The notes: generated from the letters alone by a model not told the origin. A stretch of 36,362 bases of DNA from Omnitrophica bacterium RIFCSPLOWO2_01_FULL_45_10b (GCA_001804205.1 MHFM01000009.1:61588-97949); one strand, 5' to 3'. Counted from the first letter of the stretch, positions 6,642 to 33,705 are shown. A program made the numbers and translations.

Positions 6642-6944
6642 ATGAATGAACATTATGTTTATGTTTTATGTAGTCAGAAGGACAATGAATGGTATATTGG
6701 CCAGACGGATCGGCACCCAGAAGAAAGGCTTCGAGAACATAATGCTGGTCAAATGGTCTCAACCAAATTACGACGTCCTTTGGAATTGATTTACTATGAA
6801 ATGTATCGACATAAGCAAGATGCTTTGGGCCGCGAAAAATTTCTGAAGAGCGGCGCAGGGCATAATTTTGTTCGAAAGCAACTTAGAAATTTTTTGAATC
6901 ATCATCGCGGGGTGGAGCAGCCTGGTAGCTCGCAAGGCTCATAA
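6642..6944 (+). CDS. Small GIY-YIG (URI-domain) nuclease-family protein
   Basis: YVYVLCS...WYIGQT...R..EHN...E motif pattern of stand-alone GIY-YIG proteins. Start is ATG 6642 (or GTG 6636). There is no stop before the tRNA, so the last 13 codons and the stop lie inside tRNA 6906-6982. Confidence 0.8.
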   Translation: MNEHYVYVLCSQKDNEWYIGQTDRHPEERLREHNAGQMVSTKLRRPLELIYYEMYRHKQDALGREKFLKSGAGHNFVRKQLRNFLNHHRGVEQPGSSQGS

Positions 6945-6982
6945 CCTTGAGGTCAGGGGTTCAAATCCCCTCCCCGCTACCA
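6906..6982 (+). tRNA. tRNA-Met (anticodon CAU), initiator-like
   Basis: Hand-folded cloverleaf: acceptor CGCGGGG/CCCCGCT, D arm GAGC/GCTC, anticodon arm CAAGG-CTCATAA-CCTTG, T arm AGGGG-TTCAAAT-CCCCT, CCA encoded. The 5' end is identical to E. coli tRNA-fMet (CGCGGGGTGGAGCAGCCTGGTAGCTCG) and positions 1:72 are unpaired (C:U). There are only two consecutive G:C pairs at the bottom of the anticodon stem. Confidence 0.9.
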
Positions 6983-7194: not shown

Positions 7195-7251
7195 GGAACT
7201 ACCTGGATTGCGCCGCTTCCTGTTGGCTTACTTCGAAACGTTGAAAAACGC

Positions 7252-8163
7252 ATGAAAAAGACCGTTTATCTCATTGAATACGCTGTCATTCGTTCCGTTT
7301 CTTTTTTTCTTAATCTCTTACCTCTTTCCTTAGCCCTTTACCTTGCAAGGCCCATTGGTTTTTTGTTGTTTCTTTTGCTGGGCCGGTCCCGCCGGATGGC
7401 GCTTGATAATATTCGTCAGGCGTACTCATCAGAAAAGTCTGAATCTGAAATTCGCGAAATTGCTCGAGGTGCTTTCATACATCTAACTGAATTTGGAGTT
7501 GAATGGTTGTCCATGCCTCGAATGATCCGGCACCCAGAGCATTATTTGGTTACCGTTCACCGCGGGGATCAAGTTCAAGCGGCCCTTCAAAAAGGGAAAG
7601 GCGCCATTGTGCTTGTATGTCATACCGGAAATTGGGAAATCATGGCTTTGATGGGAGGTTTGCTGGTGGCAAGACCTGTGGGCGCTTCTGTTTACGCTCT
7701 CGCAAGGCCGCTCAAAAATCCTTATCTTTATGAGTATGCGCTCCGTCTTCGTGGGGGAATGGGGTTAAAAAGCATTGAGAAAGGGGGCGGAGTTCGAGAA
7801 ACATTAAATTGCCTCAAAGAGAATGGAATCGTTTGTATTTTGATGGATCAACGCGTGAGCGAAGGGAGCATTGAAACCAATTTTTTCGGCCGACCGGCGC
7901 TCACGACAAGCCTTCCGATTATTGCTGCTTTGCGGCTCGGAACACCTGTTTTTTTTAATTTCCTTCATAGGACGAATGATTGTCATTACACCATGAGTGT
8001 CGAAGGGCCGTTATCGATTGAGTCTACCGGCAATGTTCGAACAGATATCCAGGTGAATACCCAACGATTTGTCGATCGCATCGAAACCGAAATTCGTAAG
8101 AAACCGATCCATTGGCTTTGGATGCACAACCGCTGGCGTCCTCAACACGGATCGAAGGATTAA
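7252..8163 (+). CDS. Lipid A biosynthesis lauroyl/myristoyl acyltransferase-family protein (LpxL/HtrB-like)
   Basis: N-terminal TM plus the HTGNWE catalytic motif and the MDQR... segment of the LpxL family. The track ORF starts at 6997, but its first 255 nt cover the tRNA fragment, hairpins and terminator. The first credible start is ATG 7252 (MKKTVYLIEY). Confidence 0.8.
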   Translation: MKKTVYLIEYAVIRSVSFFLNLLPLSLALYLARPIGFLLFLLLGRSRRMALDNIRQAYSSEKSESEIREIARGAFIHLTEFGVEWLSMPRMIRHPEHYLVTVHRGDQVQAALQKGKGAIVLVCHTGNWEIMALMGGLLVARPVGASVYALARPLKNPYLYEYALRLRGGMGLKSIEKGGGVRETLNCLKENGIVCILMDQRVSEGSIETNFFGRPALTTSLPIIAALRLGTPVFFNFLHRTNDCHYTMSVEGPLSIESTGNVRTDIQVNTQRFVDRIETEIRKKPIHWLWMHNRWRPQHGSKD

Positions 8164-8252
8164 CCGATTCGGCTTTTGAATAAAAGTTTCGTGCGCTTGG
8201 CTAAAAATGGTAGTATACCTTTCATCTTCAAACGCTTTCGAACCTACTTTCT

Positions 8253-9248
8253 ATGCCGCAAAAACAAATTAAAGCCTTAGTGACGGGCGGAGCGGGATTT
8301 ATTGGCTCGCATTTGTGCGAGGCGCTTCTGGACTTAGGTTTTTCCGTAACGGCCGTCGACAATTTTGCCACGGCATCCAAATCAAATATTCGCCACCTTT
8401 TAAAAACCCACCGCAGTTTTAAATTTTATAAAGGTTCTGTAATGAACCCCGCTTTAATGGAGCGATTGATTCGCAGTTGCGACATTGTTTATCATTTGGC
8501 TGCCGCCGTCGGCATTATCTATATCCTCGATCACCCAATCGATTCGATTTTAACGAACGTTAAAGGCACCGAAATAGTGCTAAAGCTGGCCAGCAAATAC
8601 GATAAGAAAGTGTTGATTACTTCAAGTTCTGAAGTCTATGGGAAGCAACCTCCTTCGCCTATTCGGGAGGAAGATGATCGAATTTTAGGTTCCACAAGCA
8701 CCAGCCGCTGGAGTTATTCGGATTCGAAAGCGACGGATGAATTCCTTGCCTTAGCATATGCCACTGAAAAAAAATTGCCTGTGGTGATTGTAAGATTGTT
8801 TAACGTGGTGGGGCCCCGGCAAGTCGGAAATTACGGCATGGTGCTTCCTCGATTTATTGAAGAAGCGCTTTCGAATAAGCCAATTACAGTTTTTGGTGAT
8901 GGATCGCAAATTCGTTCTTTTTGTTATGTGACAGATGCGGTACGTGCGATTGTTGATTTAAGTTTGAGCGAAAAAGCTTGTGGAAAAACATTCAATATCG
9001 GTAGCGACGAATCGCTTTCGATTAAACAATTGGCTTATAAGATTAAGCAGAAAACTCGTTCGCGCTCTAAAATTGTTTACATTTCCTACGAAAAATTTTA
9101 TGGTGAGCATTTTGAAGATGTAACCTTTCGAGCGCCCGATCTTTCCCGTATCCGGGCCACGATCCGATACCAGTCGCGCTATGGGATTGATCAAATCATC
9201 GATGAAACAGTTGCCTATTTTCAGCGCCGAACGGAAAAGCGGAAATGA
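8253..9248 (+). CDS. Extended-SDR NAD-dependent sugar-nucleotide epimerase/dehydratase (ArnA C-terminal / UDP-glucuronate decarboxylase-like)
   Basis: GGAGFIGSHL Rossmann motif, SSSEVYG, and catalytic YSDSK (YxxxK). Confidence 0.8.
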   Translation: MPQKQIKALVTGGAGFIGSHLCEALLDLGFSVTAVDNFATASKSNIRHLLKTHRSFKFYKGSVMNPALMERLIRSCDIVYHLAAAVGIIYILDHPIDSILTNVKGTEIVLKLASKYDKKVLITSSSEVYGKQPPSPIREEDDRILGSTSTSRWSYSDSKATDEFLALAYATEKKLPVVIVRLFNVVGPRQVGNYGMVLPRFIEEALSNKPITVFGDGSQIRSFCYVTDAVRAIVDLSLSEKACGKTFNIGSDESLSIKQLAYKIKQKTRSRSKIVYISYEKFYGEHFEDVTFRAPDLSRIRATIRYQSRYGIDQIIDETVAYFQRRTEKRK

Positions 9249-10063
9249 AACGGGCAATCTGTGCGGTTGTCATCCTGTTTTTGATCCTTCACTGTAATCC
9301 GGTGATTGCGGCGCAGCTTGATACGGAACGAGAATTAAAAGAATGGTCGCCTTATTTCGGCGGGGAAGATCGCAAACTTTATTTTGATTCCGCTTACGAA
9401 TACAGCCGAGTCAACATTTCCTCACGAAAAGTTGATTGGCAGCTTTATACAAATCTCATCATGTATCGGATCAAAGGCCAGCTGCCTTATATTGAGTTCA
9501 ACGTCCACAATCGAGATCGCGTCATCGATGAAACTCTCCATGTTGGCTCTTACTTTAAGTTCAGAGATTCATCCCTTCTTCTCGCCGAATTTGGTTTTGG
9601 TTTTGATACGGATTATATTTACAGATTTCAGGCCAAAGCAGAATATGAGCGGCCGCTTATCAAAGCGCTTCATTGGAAATTAGGTAGTCGGTACTTGCAT
9701 TATAAGGCAGCCGAAGTCCTGATTGCATCTCCGGGTATGATTTATTATTACGGCAATCACTATCTGATGGCAGACTATAATGTCTCAATTACGGAAGGAA
9801 GGCGCGATGCGCATTGGGCAACGGCCAAGGTTAATCTTGAACTTCATCAACGAGTGAACGCTTGGTTCGGAGTTGCGGCAGGCGAGCGGCTTTTTGATAT
9901 TCAGACATTACCCGCATCAGAGCAAGAGGGCTTTATTTTCTTTTGGGGCATCAATTTCAGATTATTGGAGAATATGAAGATTTATGGCGGATATTCCTAC
10001 TCTGAAGAACAACCTAACTTCATTAAACGCGGTTTTAATGGGGGGCTCTCGCTTAAATTTTAA
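9245..10063 (+). CDS. Outer-membrane beta-barrel protein, YaiO-like
   Basis: Signal peptide (ILHCNPVIA|AQ), alternating aromatic/Gly beta-strand pattern, and a C-terminal ...GGLSLKF ending in Phe. ATGA overlap with the upstream gene. The family call rests on recollection of YaiO size and C-terminus, not on an alignment. Confidence 0.5.
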   Translation: MKRAICAVVILFLILHCNPVIAAQLDTERELKEWSPYFGGEDRKLYFDSAYEYSRVNISSRKVDWQLYTNLIMYRIKGQLPYIEFNVHNRDRVIDETLHVGSYFKFRDSSLLLAEFGFGFDTDYIYRFQAKAEYERPLIKALHWKLGSRYLHYKAAEVLIASPGMIYYYGNHYLMADYNVSITEGRRDAHWATAKVNLELHQRVNAWFGVAAGERLFDIQTLPASEQEGFIFFWGINFRLLENMKIYGGYSYSEEQPNFIKRGFNGGLSLKF

Positions 10064-11329
10064 ATGAGTCCGTCCTTCCTCAATTTTGTTTATTTCATCG
10101 ACGCGATTCTTTTTGGGCTGATCGCTTTTTTAAGCTTCGGGACAATTGTTTACACATTTCTCCAAGAAGTAACAGTTCGGAAGCATCTTTATGTATTTAC
10201 CAAACTCAAAAGGAATTTTCGCAATCTCGCGCTCAAAAGTCCTAAAGCGATTCAAACCGCGTGTTTTGGTTTGGTGAACCGTTTTTCTGCCCGCGAACTT
10301 TTGGAGGCGATCAGCCATCGCGGAGACGTCATTCCGGAAAATCTAGAACCTTATCTTTCCGATTGTCTACTTGCTTCCGGAAAAATAAATGAAATTGATC
10401 ATCTCGCCAAACAAACTAAAAATAAATGGCAACGAATTGAAGCCATTACCGCACTTGGATATATTCGATCTCCTGCCGCCGTCGAGATTCTTAGCGCATC
10501 GCTTCTCGATCGCGATGACGATATTTCCTATTTTGCCATGCTTGCCCTCAGTCATATTAAGACGCCACAGGCCGCTGCTATTTTGATCGATTTTTTGAGC
10601 CGACATCGGTTCAGCGGCCACAAAATCGTTTCCTTGCTTGAATCTTTCCCTCCGGAAATTGCCAGTGAAATTTTGAAAGCGGCGGAAGGCCCTGATCCGA
10701 TCACGCGGTTTTGGATGATTAAGCTGCTTTCGAAATTTAAACAGACCAATTACTTCAGAGAAATTGTGCGCTTCGCTTCCGACTCATCTGCTGACGTGCG
10801 AGCAGCGGCTTGTGAATGTCTCAGCTCTTTGGGAAAAAAAGAAGCCAGAAGCGTTCTCGTTAAGTGCCTTTACGACGATGTTTGGTTTGTCCGAATGCAG
10901 GCCGTACGCGCGCTTTCTAAGATTGCCGGCCCCGAATCCTTTCCGCAGTTAATCGAACTGATGGTGAAAGATCCCTCTATTTTTGTAAAGGAAAGCGTTA
11001 AGAATGCAATCATGAAGGATATCGATCGCGCGCTCCCGTACCTATCCAAATATCTTGAACATGGCGACGAAGCTACGCGAAGGTATTGCATTGATGCGCT
11101 TGTGGATTCCAATTACGTCGTTAAAGTTTTGAGGGACATCCTTTCTGAAGACCCGAAAACAAAAGTTGCCACCACTCGCTTCCTTGAGCGCATGATTCGT
11201 TCGGGTGTTTACTTCGGTTTGAAGAAAAATTTGGAACCGTTTTCTTTTTCCGCCCGCGCCAATATTTTAAAGGTAATTCAAACGATCGATCCTCATCTTG
11301 CGGAACGCATCCAAAGCGATGAGGCGTAA
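10064..11329 (+). CDS. Membrane-anchored HEAT-repeat protein
   Basis: One N-terminal TM followed by a basic stretch, so the repeat domain is predicted cytoplasmic. Repeated ~30-aa units of the form ..A..ALG.I....A...L...L.D.D..VR..A..AL (PBS-lyase/HEAT-like). Confidence 0.65.
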   Translation: MSPSFLNFVYFIDAILFGLIAFLSFGTIVYTFLQEVTVRKHLYVFTKLKRNFRNLALKSPKAIQTACFGLVNRFSARELLEAISHRGDVIPENLEPYLSDCLLASGKINEIDHLAKQTKNKWQRIEAITALGYIRSPAAVEILSASLLDRDDDISYFAMLALSHIKTPQAAAILIDFLSRHRFSGHKIVSLLESFPPEIASEILKAAEGPDPITRFWMIKLLSKFKQTNYFREIVRFASDSSADVRAAACECLSSLGKKEARSVLVKCLYDDVWFVRMQAVRALSKIAGPESFPQLIELMVKDPSIFVKESVKNAIMKDIDRALPYLSKYLEHGDEATRRYCIDALVDSNYVVKVLRDILSEDPKTKVATTRFLERMIRSGVYFGLKKNLEPFSFSARANILKVIQTIDPHLAERIQSDEA

Positions 11330-11344
11330 CCAAAGAGATAAAAG

Positions 11345-12757
11345 ATGATATCAGGGCATTTTTTCACCGCCGCGTTCTTCATTTTTATTGCCTATTACCT
11401 TTTGGCAACAGCTTATTATTTGATTTTGGGCGGGGTTGGATTTTTTGAAGATCGCAAGAGAGCAAGGCAGCATCGGGAAGAAGATTACACTGCTTTTTCC
11501 GTATCCACTTTTACGATTCCCGTCAGCGTGATCATCCCCGCGCATAATGAAGAAGCCTGGATTCGCGATTCTGTCCAGTCAATCCTTAATTTGAACTATC
11601 CCGAGTTTGAATTGATTGTGGTAGACGATGGTTCGACAGACAAGACGTTAACGATTTTAAAAGAAACGCTGGAGTTGAAATTTGTTTTCAATCCCTACGT
11701 CGATCACTTCCAATCCGGAAAAGTTCTTGGGCTTTTTAAATCGAAATTATATCCGCATGTTACGGTTATCCATAAAGAAAGCGGGCAGAAAAAAGCGGGA
11801 GCTGTGAATGCAGCGCTTAATATCGCCAAATATAAGTTTGTCTGCGTGATGGACGGTGACACAGTTTTAGAGCCGGATATAGTTCTTAAAGTAATGGCCC
11901 ACATTCAAAAGGATCCGGAGCGATTGATTGGCGTTGGAAGTTATTTTGGGCTTGCCAATGAGTTCGGAATCAAAGACGGACGGGTGATCAAGAAGAATTT
12001 TTTGCGCCCGCCAACCGTAGCTTATCAAGATCTGGAATATGTTCGTTCGTTCATTGGTGCCCGGATCGCATGGAGCCGGTGGAATACAATGCCGATCGTA
12101 GCCGGCGGATTTGGATTATGGCGAAGAGATGTCTTTGTTGAATTAGGAGGCTATGATCCTCAGTATAGCAGCGAAGATGTCGAATTTACTTTTCGGGCTC
12201 ATGATTACGTTGCGAAAAATAGCAAGTTAGGTTATCAAATCTTAATGCTTCCTTATTGTGCCGGCTGGACGGAGGGCCCTGGAGATGTCAGTTCCCTCAT
12301 GAAACAGCGTAATCGTTGGCATCGGGTGACGGCCGAGGCAGTATGGGATTATAAATATATGATGTGCAATCCCCGTTACGGACGCTTCGCTTTTGTGACG
12401 TTTCCTTATTTTGTGCTTTATGAAGTCCTCGGCGTTTTTTTTGAATTAGGAAGCATTTTAATGACACTTGTTGGTTATGCTTTTGGGTTTATCGATCAAC
12501 GGTTGTTTTTTGGGATTTTTTTATTCATGGTGTTATGCCAAGCTTTGGCTTCACTGATCCCGCTTTTTGCATTTCAACGCGATCAAAAAATTTTCAACAC
12601 GAAAGAAATTTCCTATTTTGTATGTTTGGGTTGGATCGAATTTTTTTGGTATCGATGGATTATTTCATTTGCCAAACTATTAGGAACATACGATTATTTG
12701 TGCGGCGTTAGAACGTATGATCGCGTTCGGAGATTTAAGGTGAATCACTCAGGATGA
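11345..12757 (+). CDS. Processive family-2 glycosyltransferase (PgaC/cellulose-synthase-like polysaccharide synthase)
   Basis: VVDDGSTD, VMDGDTV, SEDVEF and QRNRWHR (QxxRW) motifs. One N-terminal and about four C-terminal TM helices. Confidence 0.8.
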   Translation: MISGHFFTAAFFIFIAYYLLATAYYLILGGVGFFEDRKRARQHREEDYTAFSVSTFTIPVSVIIPAHNEEAWIRDSVQSILNLNYPEFELIVVDDGSTDKTLTILKETLELKFVFNPYVDHFQSGKVLGLFKSKLYPHVTVIHKESGQKKAGAVNAALNIAKYKFVCVMDGDTVLEPDIVLKVMAHIQKDPERLIGVGSYFGLANEFGIKDGRVIKKNFLRPPTVAYQDLEYVRSFIGARIAWSRWNTMPIVAGGFGLWRRDVFVELGGYDPQYSSEDVEFTFRAHDYVAKNSKLGYQILMLPYCAGWTEGPGDVSSLMKQRNRWHRVTAEAVWDYKYMMCNPRYGRFAFVTFPYFVLYEVLGVFFELGSILMTLVGYAFGFIDQRLFFGIFLFMVLCQALASLIPLFAFQRDQKIFNTKEISYFVCLGWIEFFWYRWIISFAKLLGTYDYLCGVRTYDRVRRFKVNHSG

Positions 12758-12807
12758 AAAACAGCCCGTATTTTTGAAACCTTGAGAAGCGGAATCAAAT
12801 AAAATTC

Positions 12808-12835
12808 TTGCGGATTGGCGTGGATTCGTTACAAT
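12808..12835 (+). promoter_or_regulatory. Sigma70-type promoter candidate for the tRNA (TTGCGG-N16-TACAAT)
   Basis: TTGCGG at 12808-12813, a 16-nt spacer, TACAAT at 12830-12835. It lies 28 nt upstream of tRNA 12864. Confidence 0.5.
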
Positions 12836-12863
12836 TTTATGCCTTTAGGAGATTTTCCTTCAT

Positions 12864-12936
12864 GGCGGCGTAGCTCAGTTGGTAGAGCAAGGGACTCATA
12901 AGCCCTGGGTCAGAGGTTCGATTCCTCTCGCCGCCA
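12864..12936 (+). tRNA. tRNA with CAU anticodon (elongator Met or lysidine-dependent Ile2); CCA not encoded
   Basis: Acceptor GGCGGCG/CGCCGCC, D arm GCTC/GAGC, anticodon loop CTCATAA (A31:G39 mismatch at the bottom of the stem), T arm AGAGG-TTCGATT-CCTCT. Confidence 0.88.
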
Positions 12937-13066
12937 TTTTTAATTCCTTTGGAATGAAAAAGACTGCGGAGGAATCGAAGTGAGCCCCGTAGATGCGACT
13001 TATTAAGGAGCATCTTGCTACGGGGCGAGTGGCCGACCTGGAGTGAGCGCAGCGAACGTAAGGCGC

Positions 13067-13115: not shown

Positions 13116-14525
13116 GTGATCCAAGAACAATTCTTAAAAACCATTCATAAATTTCGTATGCTGGAAAAAGGCGATACCGTTTTTATCGCTGCCTCAGGCG
13201 GTTGCGATTCTACAACACTCCTTCACTTGCTCACCGAAATTGCGCCGGCTTGGAAATTGAAACTTGGAATTCTCCACGTGAATCACAAATTAAGGGGCAA
13301 AGCTTCCAATCAAGATGAGGCATTCGTTAGAAATCTCGCCCGGCGCTTTAAAATTCCCGTCTTTGTAGCGCGCCTTCCTGTGGAGAAAAAAATGAAGGAA
13401 GAAAAAATTTCACTTGAAGAAGCAGCCCGCGAGGAACGCTACCATTTTTTTGAAAAGACAGCAGAGGCTAAGGGTGCCCGCAAAATTTTTTTAGCCCATA
13501 CACAGGATGATCAGGCTGAAACGGTTTTGATGCGGATTATTAACGGGACGGGGCTTCAGGGGCTTCAGGCGATTCGGCCTAAACGGAAGCTCAACAATGT
13601 TTATATCATGCGCCCCTTCATTGAAATTTCAAGGAATGAAATCAGGCGCTTTGCTCAAGTGAATTCAATCCGTTTTAGGGAAGATAAAAGCAACTGGTCG
13701 CTTCAATTTCTGAGGAACCGGATTCGCCTTAAACTTTTGCCTTTCCTCGAGCATTCATTTAATCCACAGGTCAAAAAGGCTTTGGCCCGCCTCCCTCATC
13801 TTTTAGATGTTGACCTCGCATTCTTGGAAGAAACAGCGGACATTTTTTATAAACGACTGGCCAAACAGAGAAACGAAGACGAAGTTGCTTTTCCAAAGCG
13901 ATCATTTCTTCAGCTTCGGCCTTCCATTCAATATCGTTTGATCGGCCGTGCGCTTCGAACTTTGGCGGAGGCGGAGTTAGATTTTGAGCATTGGAATACT
14001 TTTTTGGAGCGCTTGACAATGGAACGCCACTTTCAACTTCAATTGCCAAAAGGGATTCTTGCGGCTGTTTCTTCGGAAGTAGTTTGCCTGAAGCGGTCCA
14101 GAAAACATCGCATTTCTTTTTCTTATCCGCTTTTTTTGGGGAAGCCGCTTTATATCCCTGAAATTGACGCAACACTTTTCTGTGAATTGCTTTCGAAAAA
14201 GCCCCGGGTCCTGCGAAAAACAGATCGACGTTTTGATATCTTTGACGGCACAAAGCTTTCGTTTCCTCTTTTGGTCCGGAATCGTAAAGCGGGCGATCGA
14301 TTTCAGCCACTCGGTCAATCCAAGCCCGTCAAACTCAAGGGATTTTTGATCAGTAGGCATATTCCTTTTGACGACCGCGATTGCTTACCCCTTGTCGTTT
14401 CAGGAGATAGACTCGCGTGGGTCGGCGGTATTGGTATGGGTGAGATATTTAAGGTAACCAACCGCACAAAGCAGTTCATCCGTATTTTACTGAGGGGTCG
14501 GGATATTTCCCGACCCCTCATATAA
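13116..14525 (+). CDS. tilS: tRNA(Ile)-lysidine synthase
   Basis: PP-loop [14 protein letters not shown] and [10 protein letters not shown] motifs, plus the C-terminal TilS substrate-binding region. GTG start. The last ~10 codons are encoded by the hairpin at 14491-14520. Confidence 0.9.
14491..14520. repeat. GAGGGGTCGGG hairpin element, copy 1
   Basis: Perfect 12-bp stem TGAGGGGTCGGG / CCCGACCCCTCA with a 6-nt loop. A near-identical 13-bp copy is at 19461-19492. Confidence 0.7.
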
Positions 14526-20993: not shown

Positions 20994-21827
20994 ATGCATT
21001 CCTTAATCCTTTGGAAAGCGTTGCTGGAAATCGGATTTATCTGGGTTCTCGTCTATTTTATGATCCGTTTTCTCCAGGGCACCCGTGCTGTCCAAGTTTT
21101 GAGCGGCTTGATCCTGCTTGTGATTTTATTCAATGTCGCAAAAATTTTGGAACTCAGCACGATCAATTGGGTTCTTACCAAATTGTTTGCGGTCGGCGTT
21201 CTTGCCTTTTTGATTCTCTTCCAGCCTGAGCTGCGCCGCGGCTTGGCGCGGATCGGCCAGAATACCATTTTCAATCCCTTTCTCAAAAAAGGCGGAACCG
21301 TCGATGAAGTTGTAGAAGCTTGTCAGCGGATGTCCAAAATGAAGCGCGGCGCTTTGATTGCAATTGAACGCGAAGCAGGGCTTAAAAATTATATCGAAAG
21401 CGGCATTCCTCTTGATGCCAAAATAAGTTCTGAGATTTTGTTGACGATTTTTGCTACCAATACGCCTACCCACGACGGTGCCGTGATCATTGAAGGTGAC
21501 CGGGTGGCTTCGGCGGGTTCGCTTTTTCCATTGAGTCAAAGTCAAACTCTGCCGCGCGCATTAGGGACACGGCATCGCGCCGCAATCGGTTTGACCGAGG
21601 AAACAGACGCGGTTTGTGTTGTTGTTTCAGAGGAAACAGGAGCTATTTCCGTTTCGGTTTATGGGAAACTGACGCGCGATTTGGACGAAGAAGGGCTCCG
21701 GCGCGTCTTAAAGAGTCTTTTTAGGCCTGAGGAACGGGGACGCGCTTTTCTGGATTATGTTCAACAGCGTTTTCGTTTCACCGGCTTCACGAAACGCGAC
21801 AATGGAGAGGAAAAGGCGCCAGAATGA
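20994..21827 (+). CDS. cdaA: Diadenylate cyclase (c-di-AMP synthase), membrane-bound CdaA type
   Basis: Three N-terminal TMs plus DAC domain motifs HDGAVII and GTRHRAAIGLTEETDA. Confidence 0.9.
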   Translation: MHSLILWKALLEIGFIWVLVYFMIRFLQGTRAVQVLSGLILLVILFNVAKILELSTINWVLTKLFAVGVLAFLILFQPELRRGLARIGQNTIFNPFLKKGGTVDEVVEACQRMSKMKRGALIAIEREAGLKNYIESGIPLDAKISSEILLTIFATNTPTHDGAVIIEGDRVASAGSLFPLSQSQTLPRALGTRHRAAIGLTEETDAVCVVVSEETGAISVSVYGKLTRDLDEEGLRRVLKSLFRPEERGRAFLDYVQQRFRFTGFTKRDNGEEKAPE

Positions 21828-21934
21828 TTCCCGTTAGAACTCTGAACTTAACGGAGTTAGTTCAAATGCAAGCAGTTGAAACCGGGCAACAACCGTTATC
21901 ATTAAAACCACCGTTATCTGGAGTTCTAACGGGA
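21828..21934. mobile_element. MITE, copy 2 (107 bp), inserted at the cdaA|cdaR junction
   Basis: TCCCGTTAGAACTC (21829-21842) and GAGTTCTAACGGGA (21921-21934). About 7 mismatches versus copy 1. Flanked by ATGA on both sides. Confidence 0.8.
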
Positions 21935-22878
21935 TGACGCGGTTTCGTTTGAGCTGGCTGATTGAAAATTGGGGCATTAAGCTGATTGCACTCATCCTTG
22001 CCGTCGGCTTTTGGTTTTATGTGGTAAGCGAAGAAAGCATCGAAGCAACCAAAACGATCCCGCTTGCCATTATTTCTCCGAGCAATCAATTGAGAGTTGT
22101 GAAAAGTTCCTCTTCCTTTTTGGAAGTAACATTTCAATCACCTCGGCATTTGTTTTCCGCGTTTTCTTCCGGAAATGTTACGGCGCGCCATAAAATCGAA
22201 GGGATCCAAAAGCCCGGCGATTACTCGTTCAACGTATCGGTGAATGATTTTACGCTTCCGGCGCCTGAAATTAGAGTTGTAAAAATTTTTCCTTCTTTTA
22301 TTACCGTTTCACTTGATGAAGTCATTGTCAAAAAACTTCCCGTTCAAGTGGATTTAGTTGGAGAACCGGCTTATGGGTATCGAGCAGACCAGGAGGCTAT
22401 TGAATTGGATCCAAATGCGGTTTTAGTTGAAGGGCCTAAAGCTGCGCTTGAGAAAATGGATACGATTAAAACAGAGCCTATTCAATTGGTTGGGCGGGTG
22501 CGTTCTTTTCGCCGTACGGTGAAGATTGCCGTGCTTCCGGAAATACGCGTTGTGGGAGATGCCATTACCGAGGTTCAGATTCCCATTAAAGCAGAATTTT
22601 CAGAACGGGAAATTCCGGATGTTCATGTTAAGATCCTTGGCACACCTTCTGCCGATCGTTATGCGCGAGTGGTGACGGATCAAATTGCGATTACCCTAAA
22701 AGGGCCGCAGGCCGTTCTGGATAAACTTGCAGCAACGGATATTTTGGCTTATGTTGAGGTAGAGGGTTTAAAAGAAGGAATTCAAGAGGTACCTGTAAAA
22801 CTCATTTTGCCGCCCGAAGTATCCCTCAAGGAAAAATTTCCACTTGCCTCAGTTGAAGTTAAGAAGCTAAAGTTTTGA
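21934..22878 (+). CDS. cdaR: CdaR (YbbR-domain) regulator of CdaA
   Basis: N-terminal TM followed by repeated YbbR-like beta modules (..V.V....P.G...). Canonical position after cdaA. Confidence 0.75.
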   Translation: MTRFRLSWLIENWGIKLIALILAVGFWFYVVSEESIEATKTIPLAIISPSNQLRVVKSSSSFLEVTFQSPRHLFSAFSSGNVTARHKIEGIQKPGDYSFNVSVNDFTLPAPEIRVVKIFPSFITVSLDEVIVKKLPVQVDLVGEPAYGYRADQEAIELDPNAVLVEGPKAALEKMDTIKTEPIQLVGRVRSFRRTVKIAVLPEIRVVGDAITEVQIPIKAEFSEREIPDVHVKILGTPSADRYARVVTDQIAITLKGPQAVLDKLAATDILAYVEVEGLKEGIQEVPVKLILPPEVSLKEKFPLASVEVKKLKF

Positions 22879-23761: not shown

Positions 23762-24643
23762 ATAGGATTTTGGACTGTGGATATTAAAAAAGAATTCCGA
23801 AAACAATTCCGTCCGAGACCGCGCGCATCTCATAAAGGAGATTATGGGAGAATCTTCATTTTGGCCGGCTCACGAGGTTTAAGCGGGGCCTGTTATCTGG
23901 CGAGCATGGCGGCATTTCGCTCCGGTGCCGGTTTGGTGACCGTGGGTGTTCCAGAAAGTCTGGTTCCGCCGTTGACAAAGCGCTTAACCGAAGCCATGAT
24001 GAAACCGCTTCCCGAAACGAGACAGGGCACATTAAGTCGGAGCGCGCTGCAGCCCATCCGGAATTTTTTAAAAACCCAGGATATTTTAGCGATAGGGCCC
24101 GGCCTTTCACTTAATCGCCAAACACAAGCTGTCGTGCGCGATACGGTGCTTGGGTCAACGAAACCGGTCGTTCTTGATGCGGATGGCTTAAATGCTTTTA
24201 AAGGTCAGGCCGATTTGTTCCGAAAATGTAAGGTACCTGTTATCGTGACGCCGCATGCCGGAGAATTTGTCCGTCTTTTTGGAACGCCGGTTCCGAAAGG
24301 CGAAAAGCTTCGAAGGCAAAGGGCTGTTGATGTTGCCAAAAAATATCGGGTGATTGTTGTTCTTAAAGGCTATCATACAGTTGTCGCTTCTCCTCAGGGG
24401 AAAGTGTATGTGAATAAAACAGGCAATCCCGGGATGGCAACGGGCGGATCTGGTGATATACTTACAGGCATGATTGCGGCGATGCTGGGCCAAGGTGCGG
24501 CGCCATTTCAAGCTGCGTGTTTCGGCGTTTTGATACACGGCTTAGCCGGTGATATGGCAGCGAAACAAAAAGGTGAAATTTCCATGGTGGCAAGCGATAT
24601 TCTTGGAGCGCTGCCTTCTGCATTTCAACAAATGATTGGGTGA
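23729..24643 (+). CDS. nnrD: ADP-dependent NAD(P)H-hydrate dehydratase (YjeF C-terminal family)
   Basis: HKGDYGRIFILAGS and GNPGMATGGSGD motifs. The first ~11 codons lie in the repeat at 23634-23761, so the real start may be GTG 23777. Confidence 0.8.
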   Translation: MSASVKDFGNDIGFWTVDIKKEFRKQFRPRPRASHKGDYGRIFILAGSRGLSGACYLASMAAFRSGAGLVTVGVPESLVPPLTKRLTEAMMKPLPETRQGTLSRSALQPIRNFLKTQDILAIGPGLSLNRQTQAVVRDTVLGSTKPVVLDADGLNAFKGQADLFRKCKVPVIVTPHAGEFVRLFGTPVPKGEKLRRQRAVDVAKKYRVIVVLKGYHTVVASPQGKVYVNKTGNPGMATGGSGDILTGMIAAMLGQGAAPFQAACFGVLIHGLAGDMAAKQKGEISMVASDILGALPSAFQQMIG

Positions 24644-24657
24644 GGAGGAAATCAATA

Positions 24658-25059
24658 ATGAAAGAAAAAGAATCTTCAAAAAGGCCGCTTATTCTTATCT
24701 TGGATGATGAGAAAGAAATTTTGGAAGCGTTTTCCTATCTGATGAAAGAATTAAATTGCGATACCGAGTTCTGCCCCACCCCCGAAGAAGCGATCGAAGT
24801 GATTCGAAAGGAACCGGATCACTACAGTTTAATCGTGACCGATATTAAGATGCCGACGATGAATGGCATCGAATTCGCTGAAAAGGTGCGCGAGCTTAAT
24901 TCGGAAGTCCCAATTATTTTTATGACGGGCTACCCTTCAGACGAGGTGAAAAGACAGACGCTTAGGTTCAAAAAAGTGGTCTATCTTGAAAAACCTTTTC
25001 ACTTGGTCCCTACATTTGGAGAGTTAATTCCCAAGCTGCTCGGCACCGAAGCAAGTTAA
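24658..25059 (+). CDS. Stand-alone response-regulator receiver domain (CheY-like)
   Basis: Acidic pocket ILDDEKE, phospho-acceptor context LIVTDIKMP, FMTG and EKPF. The AGGAGG SD 8 nt upstream favours ATG 24658 over GTG 24640. Confidence 0.8.
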   Translation: MKEKESSKRPLILILDDEKEILEAFSYLMKELNCDTEFCPTPEEAIEVIRKEPDHYSLIVTDIKMPTMNGIEFAEKVRELNSEVPIIFMTGYPSDEVKRQTLRFKKVVYLEKPFHLVPTFGELIPKLLGTEAS

Positions 25060-26015: not shown

Positions 26016-27341
26016 GTGAACAATTTGACCAAGCTGGAAGCAGGGGGTATTATTAGAAGTGATAGCAGTTACTTGGCAAAAGTTCTTTATTTAACAATCA
26101 TTTTCACGATTACAGTTTCACCGAAAGCCTTCTCAGTGGTAGAAGAAATATACGAAAGAGATATTCCCACTATTCAAGGAGCTACCGTCGGCCCTCTTGA
26201 AGAAGATCCCTTCAGCGGGGGACTCATTGGTTTTACTTCTGATAAAGACTGGAGGCTTCTCCCCGGTTTTGAATCTAAAACCACGTATGACTCAAATACC
26301 AACCGTGAGCGCCAGGGAAAAACCGACAAAAGAGACGAAGACATTATTCTTCATTATACGCCTTCCATCGCTTTAATTCGAAGCGGCACCCGATTTAGTT
26401 TCAGATCCATTTATCAGATGAGCTTTCAAGAGTTTTTGCGGGATGCAAAACAAACGGGTTTTAATCATAATGTTTCTCAAAGCATTCAATATGTAAGCCC
26501 AAAAATTAAAACAGGTATTACGTACGCTTTTTCCAATACGAAAGCCGCTGCTTCTGATGCCATTGCCAAACGACGCACCACCGTTACCAACAATTTTCAG
26601 CCAAAGTTTGAATATCAGTTTACGAGGCGATTCAGCGCAGCCGCACTCTATGAATTTTATGAGCTTGCGTATAAAGATATTGGTTCAAGAGATAACAGTA
26701 ATTACCGGCGTCACAACACAGGCGGCCGCGCGACCTATCATTTCAGCCCGAAGATGGATTTCTTTATCGAGGGAAGGGACCTTATTGTCAAATATTATAG
26801 AAACGGATTTCTTGATTCCAAGGGTTTTGTCCTATGGGGCGGCTCCAATGTGAAAGTAACGGAAAAATTTTATCTTACTTTTCAACCGGGGTATAAAATG
26901 CAAATCTATAAGGATTCAACCCTTAATACGTTTAACGGCTGGGTGTTTCAAGGAGATCTTCGATATAAGTTTTCGAATAAAATGCTTATTTTTTTAAAGG
27001 CGACCCGTGACCGACAGGAAACCAGCCGCGCCAATGGTGGTTGGAATATAGGCAACAACATCAACGGAACGGTTACTTATAAAGTTAGGCCGCGCATCAG
27101 TTTGGTTTTGGATGGATCGCTTGGCCGAACTGATTATATTCGTGAAACTACGGCCGTGGGAAAGACGAAGAGAAAGCAAGACCATACCGTTGTCGGAGGT
27201 GCTTTAATTAAATGGAATCCCATCCGCACCTTAAATTTCTCCGTTGGTTATAAGCTCCGTTTCAAAAATGTTAATATTGACAACGAAGGTGACTACCGGG
27301 CACATATTTTGGAATCAGCAATGTCTTACAAACTTGCATGA
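26016..27341 (+). CDS. Putative outer-membrane beta-barrel protein of the polysaccharide export locus
   Basis: GTG start and a hydrophobic N-terminal leader. About 400 aa of alternating Y/F/R beta-strand-like segments. ATGA-coupled to the Wza-like gene. No specific motif recognised. Confidence 0.5.
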   Translation: MNNLTKLEAGGIIRSDSSYLAKVLYLTIIFTITVSPKAFSVVEEIYERDIPTIQGATVGPLEEDPFSGGLIGFTSDKDWRLLPGFESKTTYDSNTNRERQGKTDKRDEDIILHYTPSIALIRSGTRFSFRSIYQMSFQEFLRDAKQTGFNHNVSQSIQYVSPKIKTGITYAFSNTKAAASDAIAKRRTTVTNNFQPKFEYQFTRRFSAAALYEFYELAYKDIGSRDNSNYRRHNTGGRATYHFSPKMDFFIEGRDLIVKYYRNGFLDSKGFVLWGGSNVKVTEKFYLTFQPGYKMQIYKDSTLNTFNGWVFQGDLRYKFSNKMLIFLKATRDRQETSRANGGWNIGNNINGTVTYKVRPRISLVLDGSLGRTDYIRETTAVGKTKRKQDHTVVGGALIKWNPIRTLNFSVGYKLRFKNVNIDNEGDYRAHILESAMSYKLA

Positions 27342-28078
27342 ACCCTAGGCAGCCATATTACGTAGAGGTAATTAATGCAATGCGAACAAATTATCGCAAT
27401 AAACTGAGAGCTGTTCTCTTATTGATTTCCATTTCTGTTTATTTTCTCGGCCCGTTTTCCACGCATCCGGTTTTTGCCGAAGAAAATATTCGAAGAACGC
27501 CGCCTCCTGGCTACTCTCAGCAAGCTCTTCTTGCTGCTAAAGCGAAAGCTACTCATGCCAAAAAGATGGCGGCAGCCGCTGCCGAAGACAGCTCGTATCG
27601 GGTCCAGCCGGGGGACCGCTTAGAGATCACGGTCTATCGAGAAGAAGATCTCTCGAAGGTTTATGAAGTCGACCCAAACGGAAAGCTCAATTTTCCGCTG
27701 ATCGGCGGCATTGAAGTAAAAGACCTTTCCATTGAACAATTGCGCAATAAGCTTACCGAGAACCTCAAAAAATTTATAACGGATCCTCAAATCAGCATTT
27801 CCCGATCGGAAGGCACCATTAAATCTATTTCCGTCTTGGGCTACGTGCAAAAGCCGGGCGTTTATGATTACACGCCTAATTCAACTTTGATGCGGATGAT
27901 TTCTACGGCAGGCGGGTTCAAAGACGGCGCCAATAAGAAAAAAATTAAAGTGGTGAGGATAATTAAAGGTAAAAAAGAAGTCATTGTCATTAACGCCAAA
28001 AAAATTATTAGCGGTAACGCGGACGATCCTAAAATACAGCCCAGCGACATTATTTTTGTTCCCGAATCGATTTTTTAA
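27338..28078 (+). CDS. Polysaccharide export protein (Wza/Poly_export + SLBB family)
   Basis: Signal peptide, the YRVQPGDRLEITVY Poly_export motif, and a later SVLGYVQKPGVY SLBB-like segment. Confidence 0.8.
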   Translation: MNPRQPYYVEVINAMRTNYRNKLRAVLLLISISVYFLGPFSTHPVFAEENIRRTPPPGYSQQALLAAKAKATHAKKMAAAAAEDSSYRVQPGDRLEITVYREEDLSKVYEVDPNGKLNFPLIGGIEVKDLSIEQLRNKLTENLKKFITDPQISISRSEGTIKSISVLGYVQKPGVYDYTPNSTLMRMISTAGGFKDGANKKKIKVVRIIKGKKEVIVINAKKIISGNADDPKIQPSDIIFVPESIF

Positions 28079-28095
28079 AGCTAAAAGGAGTTGAG

Positions 28096-29928
28096 ATGGC
28101 AGAAGTTCCTGAACTTGACTATAGTTCCGGAGTGTTTCAATCTGAAGAAGAAGCTGACGCATATAACTTGCAGCTTTTGTGGAAAGCGGTTCAAAACAAG
28201 CGCGGGATCATTGTTACGATTACAGGCATTGCGTTCGTTTTTTCACTGCTTTACGCGTTACACCTTCCGACTGTCTACACGGCACGCACCAAGATTTTTA
28301 TTGAAGGCGGCAAAGAATCCGCCTTTCAAAATCCGGAAATGATGGAATCGCCTGCCGCAAATCCTCTTCCCACTTATTTCCAAACCAGAGCCGAGATGCT
28401 TAAGAGCCATCATATTTTGGAACAAGCGGCTAAAGAATTAAATCTTGTGGAGCATTATCAAAAAGTAAATAAACGCATTAAAACCAACGAAGAAGCCGCC
28501 GATCTTTTAGGGGACGATAAAACCAACGTCAAACTCTTAAAAGGGACACAAATTGTGCAGCTTTCCGTAACCGATACCGATCCGCAATGGGCCGCGAAAA
28601 TAGCGGATGGCATTTCCGATACGTTTATCAAAGAGTCTTGGCGGGAACGCCTTTTTATTTCGGAGCAGATCCTAGAATGGTTTCCCAAAGAAGGGGAAAC
28701 CCTTCAGAAAAGCAGCGGCATTAACCAGCTGAGGCAATTAGATAAAGAAGGCGCTATTACGTCACTTCCAAGCGTGGCGAAGGACCCCGTGATCAATAGC
28801 ATTAAAGAAGAACGAATCAAAGTAGATGCCATGATGAGGGAACTTTCAAAACGGTATACGTCCGAACATCCCAAAATAAAAGAGCTGCAAGCCCGGGCTG
28901 ATTATCTGGAAAGCGAGATGAAATCCCAGATTCAAAAGATTGTTTCGGGGCTTAAATCGGGACTGTCCGGTGAATTCAGCGCGAGCAATATGAAGGTCAT
29001 TGAACGGGCTGAAATACCGACAAAGCCGTCCGGCCCTAAGCGCTTGGTAATGGTTTCACTCAGCACCCTCATCGCTTTATTTTTGAGCATTGTTCTTGCT
29101 GTCCAATTGAACAATCTAGACCTAAACATTAAGGCCGAAGAAGATGTGCGCCAAATCCCGATGCCATTTTTAGGTTATTTGCCTCAGCTTGATACATTGG
29201 CAGGAGATACGAAGAGCGATAGGCGCGAGAATTTATTGGAACACGTTCTTACCGACATGAGGCTGATGGATGACATTACCAATATCCGCGCCGCCGTGCT
29301 TTTTTCAATGCCGGCTGACCGAAGCAAGCTCTTAATGTTCACCAGCACGATTCCTGAGGAGGGCAAAACGACCGTAGCATCTCTTTTCGGGATGTCTTTG
29401 GCCCACGGCGGTGAAAAAGTGCTTCTGATTGATGCGGATATGCGCAAGCCCGCTTTACATCAAATATTCGGGCTTGAAAATAAGATTGGCTTAAGCCATT
29501 GCCTTGTCGGAACTGCAAAACCCCAGGAAGCCATTCAGAAAATCGATAAGATTCCGGGGCTTTCCATTATGACCGCAGGGGTAACACCACCTAATCCAGC
29601 GGCGCTTTTAGGCTCAAGCATGTTGGAGCGTTTGATTCAGGAGCTTGAACCTCATTACCGGCGTATTGTTTTTGATGGCCCTCCAGGGCTCCACATTATC
29701 GACAGCCTTCTTCTTTCCGCCAAAGTCCACGGGACGATTTTGATATTTGGCTTTGGAAAAATTCACCGTAATATCGCGAAAAAAATGAAAGAAAGGATTC
29801 TTTCGGCCAAAGGTACGCTGATCGGCGCCGCCATTAACGGCACTGATTATAAGAAGTTAGATTACGCTTCCTACACCTATTATCAGAAATACAGCAAATA
29901 CTACGGCGTCTCCAAAGCAGGCGATTAA
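28096..29928 (+). CDS. Polysaccharide co-polymerase / BY-kinase (Wzc-like: Wzz domain + tyrosine autokinase)
   Basis: Two TMs flanking a coiled-coil periplasmic domain. Walker A EEGKTT, Walker A' LIDADMRKP, Walker B IVFDGPP, and a C-terminal tyrosine cluster YASYTYYQKYSKYY. Confidence 0.85.
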   Translation: MAEVPELDYSSGVFQSEEEADAYNLQLLWKAVQNKRGIIVTITGIAFVFSLLYALHLPTVYTARTKIFIEGGKESAFQNPEMMESPAANPLPTYFQTRAEMLKSHHILEQAAKELNLVEHYQKVNKRIKTNEEAADLLGDDKTNVKLLKGTQIVQLSVTDTDPQWAAKIADGISDTFIKESWRERLFISEQILEWFPKEGETLQKSSGINQLRQLDKEGAITSLPSVAKDPVINSIKEERIKVDAMMRELSKRYTSEHPKIKELQARADYLESEMKSQIQKIVSGLKSGLSGEFSASNMKVIERAEIPTKPSGPKRLVMVSLSTLIALFLSIVLAVQLNNLDLNIKAEEDVRQIPMPFLGYLPQLDTLAGDTKSDRRENLLEHVLTDMRLMDDITNIRAAVLFSMPADRSKLLMFTSTIPEEGKTTVASLFGMSLAHGGEKVLLIDADMRKPALHQIFGLENKIGLSHCLVGTAKPQEAIQKIDKIPGLSIMTAGVTPPNPAALLGSSMLERLIQELEPHYRRIVFDGPPGLHIIDSLLLSAKVHGTILIFGFGKIHRNIAKKMKERILSAKGTLIGAAINGTDYKKLDYASYTYYQKYSKYYGVSKAGD

Positions 29929-29956
29929 AAACCGTCTGGTTTAAGGTGTCATCCTC

Positions 29957-29997
29957 AAAAAAGGGACAGGCAAGAAGTATTGCCTGTCCCTTTTTTT
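29957..29997 (+). terminator. Rho-independent terminator (potentially bidirectional)
   Basis: A-tract, then a 10-bp stem GGGACAGGCA (29963-29972) / TGCCTGTCCC (29981-29990), then TTTTTTT. Confidence 0.75.
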
Positions 29998-30138
29998 GTG
30001 TGATAATTTGTCAGAGGAAGCGGCTTGAGCACCGAAAATCGAGTGGCAGGAAAACACTCAAGTATGATATAAGTCTACAATAAACAAGGGGTTAGAAAGT
30101 ACTCAATTTTTACTCAAAAAAGCCGAAAAATAACAAGG

Positions 30139-30168
30139 TTGACGAGAAGGCAGTTTAACAGCTATACT
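30139..30168 (+). promoter_or_regulatory. Sigma70-type promoter candidate (TTGACG-N18-TATACT)
   Basis: TTGACG at 30139-30144, an 18-nt spacer, TATACT at 30163-30168. Confidence 0.45.
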
Positions 30169-30173
30169 TTCAC

Positions 30174-30238
30174 ATCATCTCAGCGGGACCGCGTGTTCCG
30201 CTGGCCCCGGATTCCTGTGAATCCGGGATTTTTATTTT
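30174..30238 (+). ncRNA. Candidate ~65-nt small RNA or attenuator (promoter + two hairpins + U-tract)
   Basis: The predicted TSS is ~6 nt after the -10 element. Hairpin GCGGGAC/GTTCCGC (30183-30201), then an 8-bp stem CCCGGATT/AATCCGGG (30206-30227) followed by ATTTTTATTTT. No family recognised. Confidence 0.3.
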
Positions 30239-30539
30239 AGGGGACTTTTATGGCGCGTGGGCATATGAAGCCGAAAGTTAAACATCTGGAAAGCTGTCAG
30301 TTAGAAGACAAGGTTCAGGTTGATAATCTTGTATTAACAAGGCCATCTTCTTGGCGTTGACCTTGTGACCAATTCGTGGCCAAAGCCCGTGACCCCATTT
30401 TGCCAAGATTCAGATCCTTATGAGAACAATAGGGAATCGGCCAGCCCGTAAGAAGGTGCCTCATCCGCGAGTTCGGAAAAAGCGGTGCGTCCCCCCCCGA
30501 TAAGTATTACACTGCCCCCAAAAAAGGCGATTAAAAACT

Positions 30540-30630
30540 GTCATTCTGAGCCCTTCGCCGCCTGTCATCCTGAACGAAGTGAAGGATCTAATCTACAAGT
30601 AGATTCTTCGGGCTGCGCCCTCAGAATGAC
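30540..30630. repeat. GTCAT...ATGAC palindromic element (91 bp)
   Basis: GTCATTCTGAG at 30540 and CTCAGAATGAC ending at 30630, with a nested GTCATCCTGAACGAAGTGAAGGATC. The track ORF 30485-30691 is a translation of it. Confidence 0.75.
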
Positions 30631-30820
30631 AAAGGTTTTTTTGATCCATCACCACTGGTCCACCCCCCATCTTTCTTCAACCTTGAATTAAGTCCCAAAA
30701 TTAGGAGAGGAATCCCAACTTTCGTATTGCGGTGTTTGCAACCGAATAGGGGGGGTGGTAAAGTTCATTATGAGTGTTCGGAAGATTGAACACCGAAGCA
30801 GTACCTTGGAGGCAGTACAA

Positions 30821-31591: not shown

Positions 31592-31658
31592 GAGATTTAA
31601 ATTACCGATCTTTTAACAAGGAACAACGCTTTTTCCTGAACATTGAAGGATAGACCCA

Positions 31659-33689: not shown

Positions 33690-33705
33690 GATTTATCGGC
33701 AAACA

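Follow-up and report, generated by a model that had tools for sequence, protein, structure and literature searches.

The four same-strand genes at positions 8253-12757 of a 36,362-nucleotide stretch from the genome of Omnitrophica bacterium RIFCSPLOWO2_01_FULL_45_10b (MHFM01000009.1:61588-97949; the whole stretch is called the window below) probably form a self-contained, horizontally gained-or-lost cassette for synthase-dependent polysaccharide synthesis and export. They encode a short-chain dehydrogenase/reductase (SDR), an outer-membrane beta-barrel of the YaiO family, a membrane-anchored HEAT-repeat protein and a processive glycosyltransferase of family 2 (GT2). A first-pass annotation, made from the sequence alone, had described a compact synthase-dependent polysaccharide module in which a membrane-anchored cytoplasmic HEAT solenoid fills the slot of the synthase partner; this core reading is supported by hidden Markov model (HMM) searches, by the co-conservation of the barrel, HEAT and GT2 genes, and by a lysine/arginine (K/R) bias beside the transmembrane (TM) anchor of the HEAT protein. 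It stands on domain identities, catalytic motifs, membrane topology, barrel architecture, gene linkage and inheritance of the genes as one block. The four genes are:

8253..9248, + strand: cytoplasmic extended SDR, nucleotide-sugar 4-oxidising (UXS/ArnA/LegB-like), presumed precursor supplier (PF01370, UXS1 alignment)
9245..10063, + strand: YaiO-family outer-membrane beta-barrel without tetratricopeptide repeats (TPR), presumed outer-membrane exit pore (PF19413, TIGR04390, AlphaFold2)
10064..11329, + strand: single-pass N-out/C-in inner-membrane HEAT-solenoid protein, GT2 partner (HEAT_2, AlphaFold2, gene linkage)
11345..12757, + strand: membrane-integrated processive GT2, polymerase and inner-membrane translocase (PF00535, PF13641, PF13632, motifs)

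Open reading frame (ORF) calling returned all four genes at these coordinates. The SDR and barrel genes share an ATGA overlap at 9245-9248 (reading GAAATGAAA), the TAA of the barrel gene abuts the ATG of the HEAT gene at 10063/10064 (reading TTTTAAATGAGT), and a 15-nt spacer lies ahead of the ATG of the GT2 gene at 11345; ORF calls and junction sequences thus agree with the four tightly packed genes and the junctions first described. HMMs also put all four proteins in the families named in the first-pass annotation (nucleotide-sugar SDR, YaiO, HEAT_2 and GT2). No TPR, PilZ, GGDEF, deacetylase or hydrolase domain was found in the four proteins by Pfam and NCBIfam profile searches. The earlier statement that these domains are missing therefore stands for the four proteins but not as a general trait, as relatives in Nitrospirota, Acidobacteriota and Aminicenantes have TPR. 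Dozens of independent genomes share this gene order, which puts the four-gene arrangement far beyond chance.

When a database was searched with the HEAT protein, 49 same-length homologues came up. The order barrel-HEAT-GT2 was kept in all four homologue contexts examined, the flanks being unrelated; the SDR gene stood in front with the 4-nt overlap in three of them, and the most distant one (29% identity) has a downstream receiver-fused SDR. A further 80 loci were collected by a pattern scan with the HEAT alignment, one genome per GTDB species, and their ORFs were called and searched with the window proteins. Downstream flank suffices in 74 loci; in 71 of them, all except L075, L078 and L085, a GT2 orthologue immediately follows the HEAT gene. 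The barrel gene lies directly upstream of the HEAT gene in 31 of the 31 Omnitrophota-type loci with enough upstream flank (36 loci in all), about three quarters of the Omnitrophota-type loci also containing the SDR gene. As the loci were picked through the HEAT protein alone, these neighbours are an independent result, and the barrel, HEAT and GT2 genes, whose scattering in other genomes had been set beforehand as grounds for giving up the reading, are co-conserved. Some Omnitrophota-type loci come from metagenome-assembled genomes labelled "Elusimicrobia", "Planctomycetia" or "Clostridia", which may be mis-binned.

Forty-four loci belong to Acidobacteriota/Terriglobia, Nitrospirota and Aminicenantes. 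Their HEAT homologue (22-30% identity) has the same build of TM segment and solenoid and again adjoins a GT2 orthologue (E 1e-50 to 1e-69), save for the three exceptions and four contig-truncated loci (L048, L051, L066 and L073; L051 ends in the first ~30 GT2 residues). In Nitrospirota, a TPR-YaiO fusion (YaiO 3.4e-29) comes after the GT2, followed by a sulfatase-family membrane protein and then by an amidohydrolase. A profile begun from this Nitrospirota barrel converges on the Omnitrophota barrels; the Omnitrophota barrel profile by itself did not reach the Nitrospirota barrels. The Nitrospirota set of HEAT, GT2 and TPR-YaiO has the classic TPR-porin exporter design, which ties the YaiO barrel to export and connects the module with the canonical synthase-dependent systems. 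Large TPR proteins come after the GT2 in Acidobacteriota and Aminicenantes. The conserved core is HEAT plus GT2, with a YaiO exporter that may or may not carry TPR, so the TPR-less state in the window is a reduced lineage variant.

Several of these loci have features of their own. The three exceptions, all from Acidobacteriota (L075:6554-7930, L078:1656-3032 and L085:4305-5759), encode a HEAT protein of the same build with no GT2 within several kb; these homologues either are orphan paralogues or have another partner. In a Nitrospirota locus (L086:10874-13872), the 678-aa sulfatase-family membrane protein (LtaS/BcsG-like build) and the amidohydrolase are candidate polymer modifiers with no counterpart in the window. 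An acidobacterial locus (L071:9474-12404) encodes after the GT2 a 976-aa protein with TPRs only in its first ~165 residues; its C-terminal ~800 aa matched no Pfam family, and it is possibly a different outer-membrane exporter.

The linkage of the barrel bears on the idea that the module makes an OpgH-like glucan which stays in the periplasm or envelope, the barrel serving another purpose. The lack of a periplasmic scaffold would suit it, but the barrel is co-inherited with HEAT-GT2 in every one of the 31 flank-sufficient Omnitrophota-type loci, and in Nitrospirota it is fused to TPR directly after the GT2; we consider a retained glucan very unlikely.

The module is an accessory cassette, because a genome of the same genus (G064) has an empty site and only 10 of 151 genomes carry the module. 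These figures refer to an even sample of Omnitrophota, in which the HEAT partner was present in 10/151 genomes (9/124 high-quality ones) across five families. On contig C69 of G064, an LpxL-like gene, a repeat-rich spacer of ~205 bp, tRNA(CAT) and tilS-ftsH are contiguous and enclose none of the four genes, and the tRNA(CAT) after LpxL is 97% identical to the one at 12863-12937 of the window. The borders of the cassette in the window are as follows:

8164..8252, no strand assigned: upstream cassette border, spacer behind the LpxL-like gene (G064 empty-site comparison)
12758..12862, no strand assigned: downstream cassette border, spacer ahead of tRNA-CAT (ARAGORN tRNA and G064 comparison)

Gain or loss of the four genes as one block is further evidence that they work jointly. 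In G086, a genome of the same family, the module and tilS-ftsH/enolase are on different contigs. GC content over the module is 43-45%, without contrast to the flanks, and a promoter and terminator scan gave background level only. The two tRNA(CAT) genes found by ARAGORN (6906-6982 and 12863-12937) are distinct tRNAs rather than duplicates, and an LpxL-family acyltransferase gene (7243-8163) is located between the first of them and the module. The source assembly comprises 1.84 Mb and is 93% complete. Two observations concern the site itself. The pairing of tRNA(CAT) with a directly downstream tilS is conserved between the window (12863-12937 and 13116-14525) and G064 (L110:1141-1213), and the ~205-bp spacer of the G064 empty site (L110:950-1100) contains two copies of a palindromic gataatcagggcgg... 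element.

Judged by its sequence, the GT2 has every catalytic signature of the processive membrane synthases (PgaC/BcsA/hyaluronan-synthase class). It contains PF00535 (Glycos_transf_2, 4.9e-30), PF13641 (Glyco_tranf_2_3) and PF13632 (Glyco_trans_2_3), and conservation of its motifs D95/S97/D99, D170xD172, E277-D278 and Q321RxRW325 reaches 95% or more across 72 orthologues. Hydrophobic segments are found at residues 5-31 and 348-411, i.e., one N-terminal and several C-terminal, and together with QRNRW at residues 321-325 they bear out the multi-TM GT2 with the QxxRW processivity motif claimed at first. Residues 59-380/406 align to hyaluronan synthase and BcsA, including the channel region. The closest NCBIfam profile is PgaC_IcaA (TIGR03937; 111.2 bits in three stretches, 5.7e-32, cut-off 422.3). 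Membership in PgaC itself was rejected, as 111 bits is far under the equivalog cut-off of 422. Natural HEAT-GT2 fusions were not found among 120 GT2 homologues.

The barrel protein passes both HMMs of the YaiO family, PF19413 (43.1 bits, cut-off 23.9) and TIGR04390 (53.8 bits, cut-off 32, residues 53-272 of 272), and ends in ...SLKF, in line with the 272-aa YaiO-like barrel with a terminal Phe proposed initially. Hydrophobic residues 2-26 form an N-terminal signal peptide. The AlphaFold2 model, built with a 34-sequence alignment (pLDDT 88.9, pTM 0.81), has 14 strands and no plug domain, with only ~20 mature residues before the first strand. Its top fold matches by TM-score are structures of the 14-stranded monomeric porin OmpG (2x9k, TMq 0.65; 4ctd, 2wvp and 2f1c, 0.59-0.61), and the fold search showed no special likeness to PgaA, BcsC or AlgE. 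The protein is thus modelled as a 14-stranded outer-membrane pore of the YaiO family with a signal peptide.

The small barrel raises the possibility that the products of the GT2 are short oligosaccharides, such as chito-oligosaccharides of the NodC kind, which the OmpG-like barrel would release as a signal or a short surface glycan. The GT2 does match NodC (1.7e-10), many of its orthologues match Chitin_synth_2, the barrel is more like OmpG, a 14-stranded oligosaccharide porin, than like the 16-18-stranded exopolysaccharide porins, and the four proteins include neither a TPR scaffold nor a chain-modifying enzyme. However, the PgaC_IcaA match (5.7e-32) is far ahead of NodC, hyaluronan synthase and BcsA align with the GT2 over the full length, channel region included, and the TPR-porin fusions of relatives are typical of polymer exporters; a short product therefore appears to us quite improbable, and synthesis and export of a polymer is preferred.

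The 421-aa HEAT protein matches HEAT_2 in four stretches (7.2e-37). Its sole hydrophobic segment, at residues 3-34, is followed by a K/R-rich stretch, and the AlphaFold2 model (pLDDT 90.7) consists of a helix at 3-56 (TM segment plus stalk) and an unbroken all-alpha solenoid at 60-418. A fold search with this model retrieved nothing but designed alphaRep and importin-alpha proteins and gave no clue to function. The family is marked by the motifs NKWRRIEA, DEDISYF, RFWALKLL, DVRAAACECLG and WFVRMHAVRALS. An N-terminal TM segment with K/R bias behind it is present in 80 of the 83 HEAT homologues with an intact N-terminus; in the 13 homologues with counts, 4-10 K/R residues fall within 25 residues after the segment, against 0-3 before it. 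Ahead of the conserved TM segment, three homologues (P0002, P0003 and P0005) carry an additional signal peptide at the N-terminus, whose lipobox reads LSSC or LSGC, and then ~55 further residues. Since these lipobox-signal homologues fit only one orientation, the conserved TM segment is N-out/C-in and the solenoid is cytoplasmic, the location at which the first-pass annotation had arrived by the positive-inside rule and which the K/R bias in 80/83 homologues also indicates. With this addition (alignment A2, columns 1-113; also L001:6001-7491), a lipobox and a periplasmic segment of ~55 residues, such HEAT partners would have an anchor on either side of the inner membrane.

An identity with phycobilisome lyases or NblB was rejected for the HEAT protein (56 bits against 300 for NblB, 25 against 330 for CpcE), the likeness being limited to generic PBS-HEAT repeats. 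The HEAT profile found 2629 matches at E <= 1e-30 among 1.84 billion representatives, a number swamped by giant multi-HEAT proteins and unusable as the family size; within the best 150 matches there were ~70 full-length clusters of ~420 aa.

The SDR matches PF01370 (6.7e-55) and PF16363 (1.4e-50) of Pfam and has no hydrophobic segment. Among solved structures, human UDP-glucuronate decarboxylase UXS1 comes closest (8.8e-47, full length), and SSSEVYG, YSDSK and GSQIRSFCYV align with the UXS motifs. A LegB-type 4,6-dehydratase profile scores 173 bits, about level with the UXS likeness, and no NCBIfam equivalog cut-off is reached, for which reasons the protein is called a 4-oxidising nucleotide-sugar enzyme, a decarboxylase being more likely than a dehydratase. 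Three UDP-sugar dehydrogenase genes in the genome are a potential source of UDP-glucuronate. In relatives, too, the SDR and barrel genes overlap by the 4-nt ATGA. As to the product, the PgaC/chitin-synthase-like matches of the GT2 suggest a backbone of beta-linked hexosamine or hexose, and the UXS-like SDR suggests that a pentose or a 4-keto/6-deoxy sugar is a component, both putative.

The SDR also matches the ArnA decarboxylase domain (NCBIfam, 1.3e-32, plus ArnA PDB entries), and the LpxL-family gene (7243-8163) is directly upstream, so that lipid A or lipopolysaccharide modification, or an Arn-like lipid-linked sugar, with an ArnA-like SDR and an ArnC-like GT2, was considered. The QRxRW motif, the ED base, the C-terminal multi-TM bundle and the full-length synthase alignment of the GT2 are, however, unlike ArnC/GtrB-type enzymes. 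Arn-type pathways have no role for a dedicated outer-membrane barrel, and the LpxL adjacency is not kept in relatives, the same-genus G064 having LpxL without the module. On the GT2 motifs and the non-conserved LpxL adjacency, this candidate was rejected as extremely unlikely.

In a group of relatives the module is headed in another way. In L006, L012, L020, L027, L028, L029, L034, L036, L037 and L038 the gene immediately before that of the barrel encodes a stand-alone receiver (PF00072) of ~127 aa, and L026 has a stand-alone receiver at the contig edge. Four of the receiver-headed loci also encode a ~460-aa receiver-SDR fusion, the SDR half of which is orthologous to the window SDR:

L006:6432-7814, L027:4378-5766, L036:4322-5710 and L037:9098-10480: receiver-SDR fusions (Response_reg plus Epimerase), an unusual pairing of phosphorelay with a nucleotide-sugar enzyme

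All receiver-headed loci make up one clade on the GT2 tree (SH-aLRT 97), and the window falls in a separate SDR-headed clade with L001, L002, L010, L017 and L041 (SH-aLRT 98); the tree was rooted with the loci from other phyla, and the root depends on that outgroup. The window operon contains no receiver gene, and no orthologue of the module receiver was found in the window's genome, the best match (38% identity) being at the generic level. The window copy is thus the receiver-less, TPR-less, SDR-headed form. Beside these genes, the receiver-headed modules of L006 (5087-6430), L027 (3056-4381) and L036 (3003-4313) contain CofD/YvcK-like proteins of ~440 aa with a weak receiver-like N-terminus.

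We propose that the SDR makes a donor or co-donor from a UDP-sugar, the likeliest reaction being UDP-glucuronate to UDP-xylose or a 4-keto-pentose, with 4,6-dehydration as the alternative. The GT2 would polymerise the sugar at the cytoplasmic face and thread the chain through its own TM channel, and the OmpG-sized YaiO barrel would let the chain out, here without a TPR scaffold. The HEAT protein may be a non-catalytic synthase subunit, its TM/stalk helix packing on the GT2 bundle as PgaD or the BcsB anchor does, and its solenoid may provide a cytoplasmic docking or regulatory platform where known systems use PilZ, PgaD or other receptors of cyclic di-GMP (c-di-GMP). As the operon position of the SDR is held in relatives by a phosphorylatable receiver or a receiver-SDR fusion, the solenoid could recruit these soluble partners; the shared position suggests that it may bind receiver and SDR proteins. 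In the receiver-less form, control might operate through precursor supply, transcription or an unlinked signal.

A more far-reaching version of this proposal is speculative and, in our view, has only a small chance of being right as a whole: the HEAT solenoid would be a new regulatory hub of a synthase, recruiting a phosphorylated receiver or the SDR, with gating by phosphorelay or substrate channelling in place of c-di-GMP, and the donor here would be a UDP-pentose or 4-keto sugar, leading to a xylose-type exopolysaccharide. The receiver-SDR fusions serve as a Rosetta stone for the docking-hub part of it. We know of no xylose-type bacterial exopolysaccharide from synthase-dependent systems.

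The HEAT protein could instead be a PgaD-like co-receptor of c-di-GMP in an ordinary c-di-GMP-gated synthase, with no docking platform for SDR or receiver. PgaD is likewise an inner-membrane partner encoded beside its GT2, the operon of the window has no receiver gene, and the genome contains 11 GGDEF and 7 PilZ matches elsewhere. Pfam and NCBIfam searches nevertheless detected no c-di-GMP-binding domain or motif in the HEAT protein or the GT2, HEAT solenoids are protein-binding folds, and phosphorelay receivers occur inside the operon in a clade of close relatives; we regard a co-receptor of this kind as unlikely. Because of the GGDEF and PilZ matches, c-di-GMP could still act on the synthase, either via an unlinked receptor or via the HEAT-GT2 pair.

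Several points weigh against the reading of the cassette as a polysaccharide synthesis and export system, the just-mentioned GGDEF and PilZ matches outside the cassette among them. The SDR is not assignable between decarboxylase and 4,6-dehydratase, and its gene is missing in about a quarter of related loci. The GT2 is under every NCBIfam equivalog cut-off, so that the profiles assign it neither sugar nor linkage. The porins PgaA, BcsC and AlgE are 16-18-stranded and larger than the 14-stranded barrel. Finally, the cassette encodes no periplasmic scaffold or modifying enzyme, which leaves the chain's crossing of the periplasm unexplained.

Elsewhere in the window (26016-35004, on to 36361) there is another polysaccharide locus, of the Wzx/Wzy type and unrelated to the module. 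Its genes encode a beta-barrel porin with BBP2_2 (26016-27341), a Wza-like protein with Poly_export and SLBB (27338-28078), a chain-length/ATPase protein of the Wzz/Wzc kind (28096-29928) and a polymerase/ligase with Wzy_C and TPR (31659-33689), and two further ORFs (30755-31591 and 33706-35004) have no Pfam match; AT skew switches sign across this stretch. The c-di-AMP cyclase CdaA and a YbbR-type partner are encoded within 20994-22878. A stand-alone 139-aa receiver is encoded at 24640-25059, its start overlapping the end of an NAD(P)H-hydrate dehydratase gene; with the module-type receiver it shares only 28% identity. A 333-aa ORF at 94-1095 combines an AAA_17/AAA_18 kinase-like N-terminal half with a dCMP/cytidine deaminase zinc-binding domain.

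The synthase-dependent systems for cellulose, poly-N-acetylglucosamine, alginate and Pel are the textbook machines of the biofilm matrix and, to our knowledge, all known synthase-dependent exopolysaccharide systems are gated by c-di-GMP via a small set of receptor modules. With this general class the window operon shares a processive GT2 that has its own TM channel and the motifs D, DxD, ED and QxxRW, as well as a porin encoded with the synthase; it differs in having neither a periplasmic TPR scaffold nor a recognised c-di-GMP receptor (PilZ, degenerate GGDEF, MshEN or the PgaCD site). Literature searches turned up no account of a GT2 synthase with a HEAT partner, and none of what YaiO does; in the literature found, E. 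coli yaiO is used mainly as a PCR marker.

The functionally closest known systems are those of the Pga/Ica type. PgaABCD and IcaADBC have in common with the module a multi-TM processive GT2, an adjacent non-catalytic inner-membrane partner and an outer-membrane barrel encoded in the same operon. However, the partner is a 421-aa HEAT solenoid here, whereas PgaD is small with two TM segments, and the barrel is a 14-stranded one of the YaiO family without TPR, whereas PgaA is 16-stranded with TPR. The window operon also has no PgaB-type deacetylase and no recognised c-di-GMP site, and it is headed by a UXS-like SDR. The E. coli cluster yaiO-yaiX-yaiP-yaiS likewise has a barrel that passes PF19413 near a multi-TM GT2, and its function is unstudied, too; it has no HEAT gene, and contains an IS2-disrupted acyltransferase and an LmbE-like deacetylase instead. 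The first-pass annotation had named yaiO-yaiP as possibly the nearest analogue. The shared YaiO HMM family is in favour of this, but the pairwise similarity of the barrel to E. coli YaiO is marginal (E 0.005), there is no HEAT gene, and orthology of the GT2 to YaiP was rejected, as BLASTP aligned the glycosyltransferase core only (27% identity, E 2e-10); the cluster is therefore a loose analogue.

BcsA-BcsB and the Chlorella-virus hyaluronan synthase share with the GT2 the aligned residues 59-380/406 and the D, DxD, ED and QxxRW motifs. The similarity is remote (E 1e-5 to 1e-3); unlike these systems, the module has neither a PilZ domain nor a BcsB-like subunit in the periplasm, and its partner is cytoplasmic. 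NfrA-NfrB, the c-di-GMP-activated exopolysaccharide synthase of E. coli and receptor of phage N4, also combines a GT2 with an outer-membrane TPR-barrel across two membranes; NfrB, however, carries the MshEN c-di-GMP domain, and NfrA uses the NfrA_C domain and no YaiO. A relationship to NfrAB was rejected, as the GT2 has no similarity to NfrB (best E 0.40) and NfrA has NfrA_C instead of YaiO.

Set against all these systems, the module retains synthase and porin; its partner is a cytoplasmic HEAT solenoid, its exporter a functionally unstudied YaiO barrel, and in relatives phosphorelay receivers occur in place of c-di-GMP receptors. In the loci surveyed, members of the HEAT-GT2 family come from at least Omnitrophota, Nitrospirota, Acidobacteriota and Aminicenantes, to which the window adds the receiver-less, TPR-less, SDR-headed form together with the empty-site comparison. 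As the smallest form (four genes, no TPR, no receiver), with a clean empty site in a sister genome, the window copy is convenient for heterologous reconstitution. Elucidation of the module would give a function to the YaiO-family barrels, the cryptic one of E. coli included, and would show a new control of a processive glycosyltransferase and possibly a new polymer.

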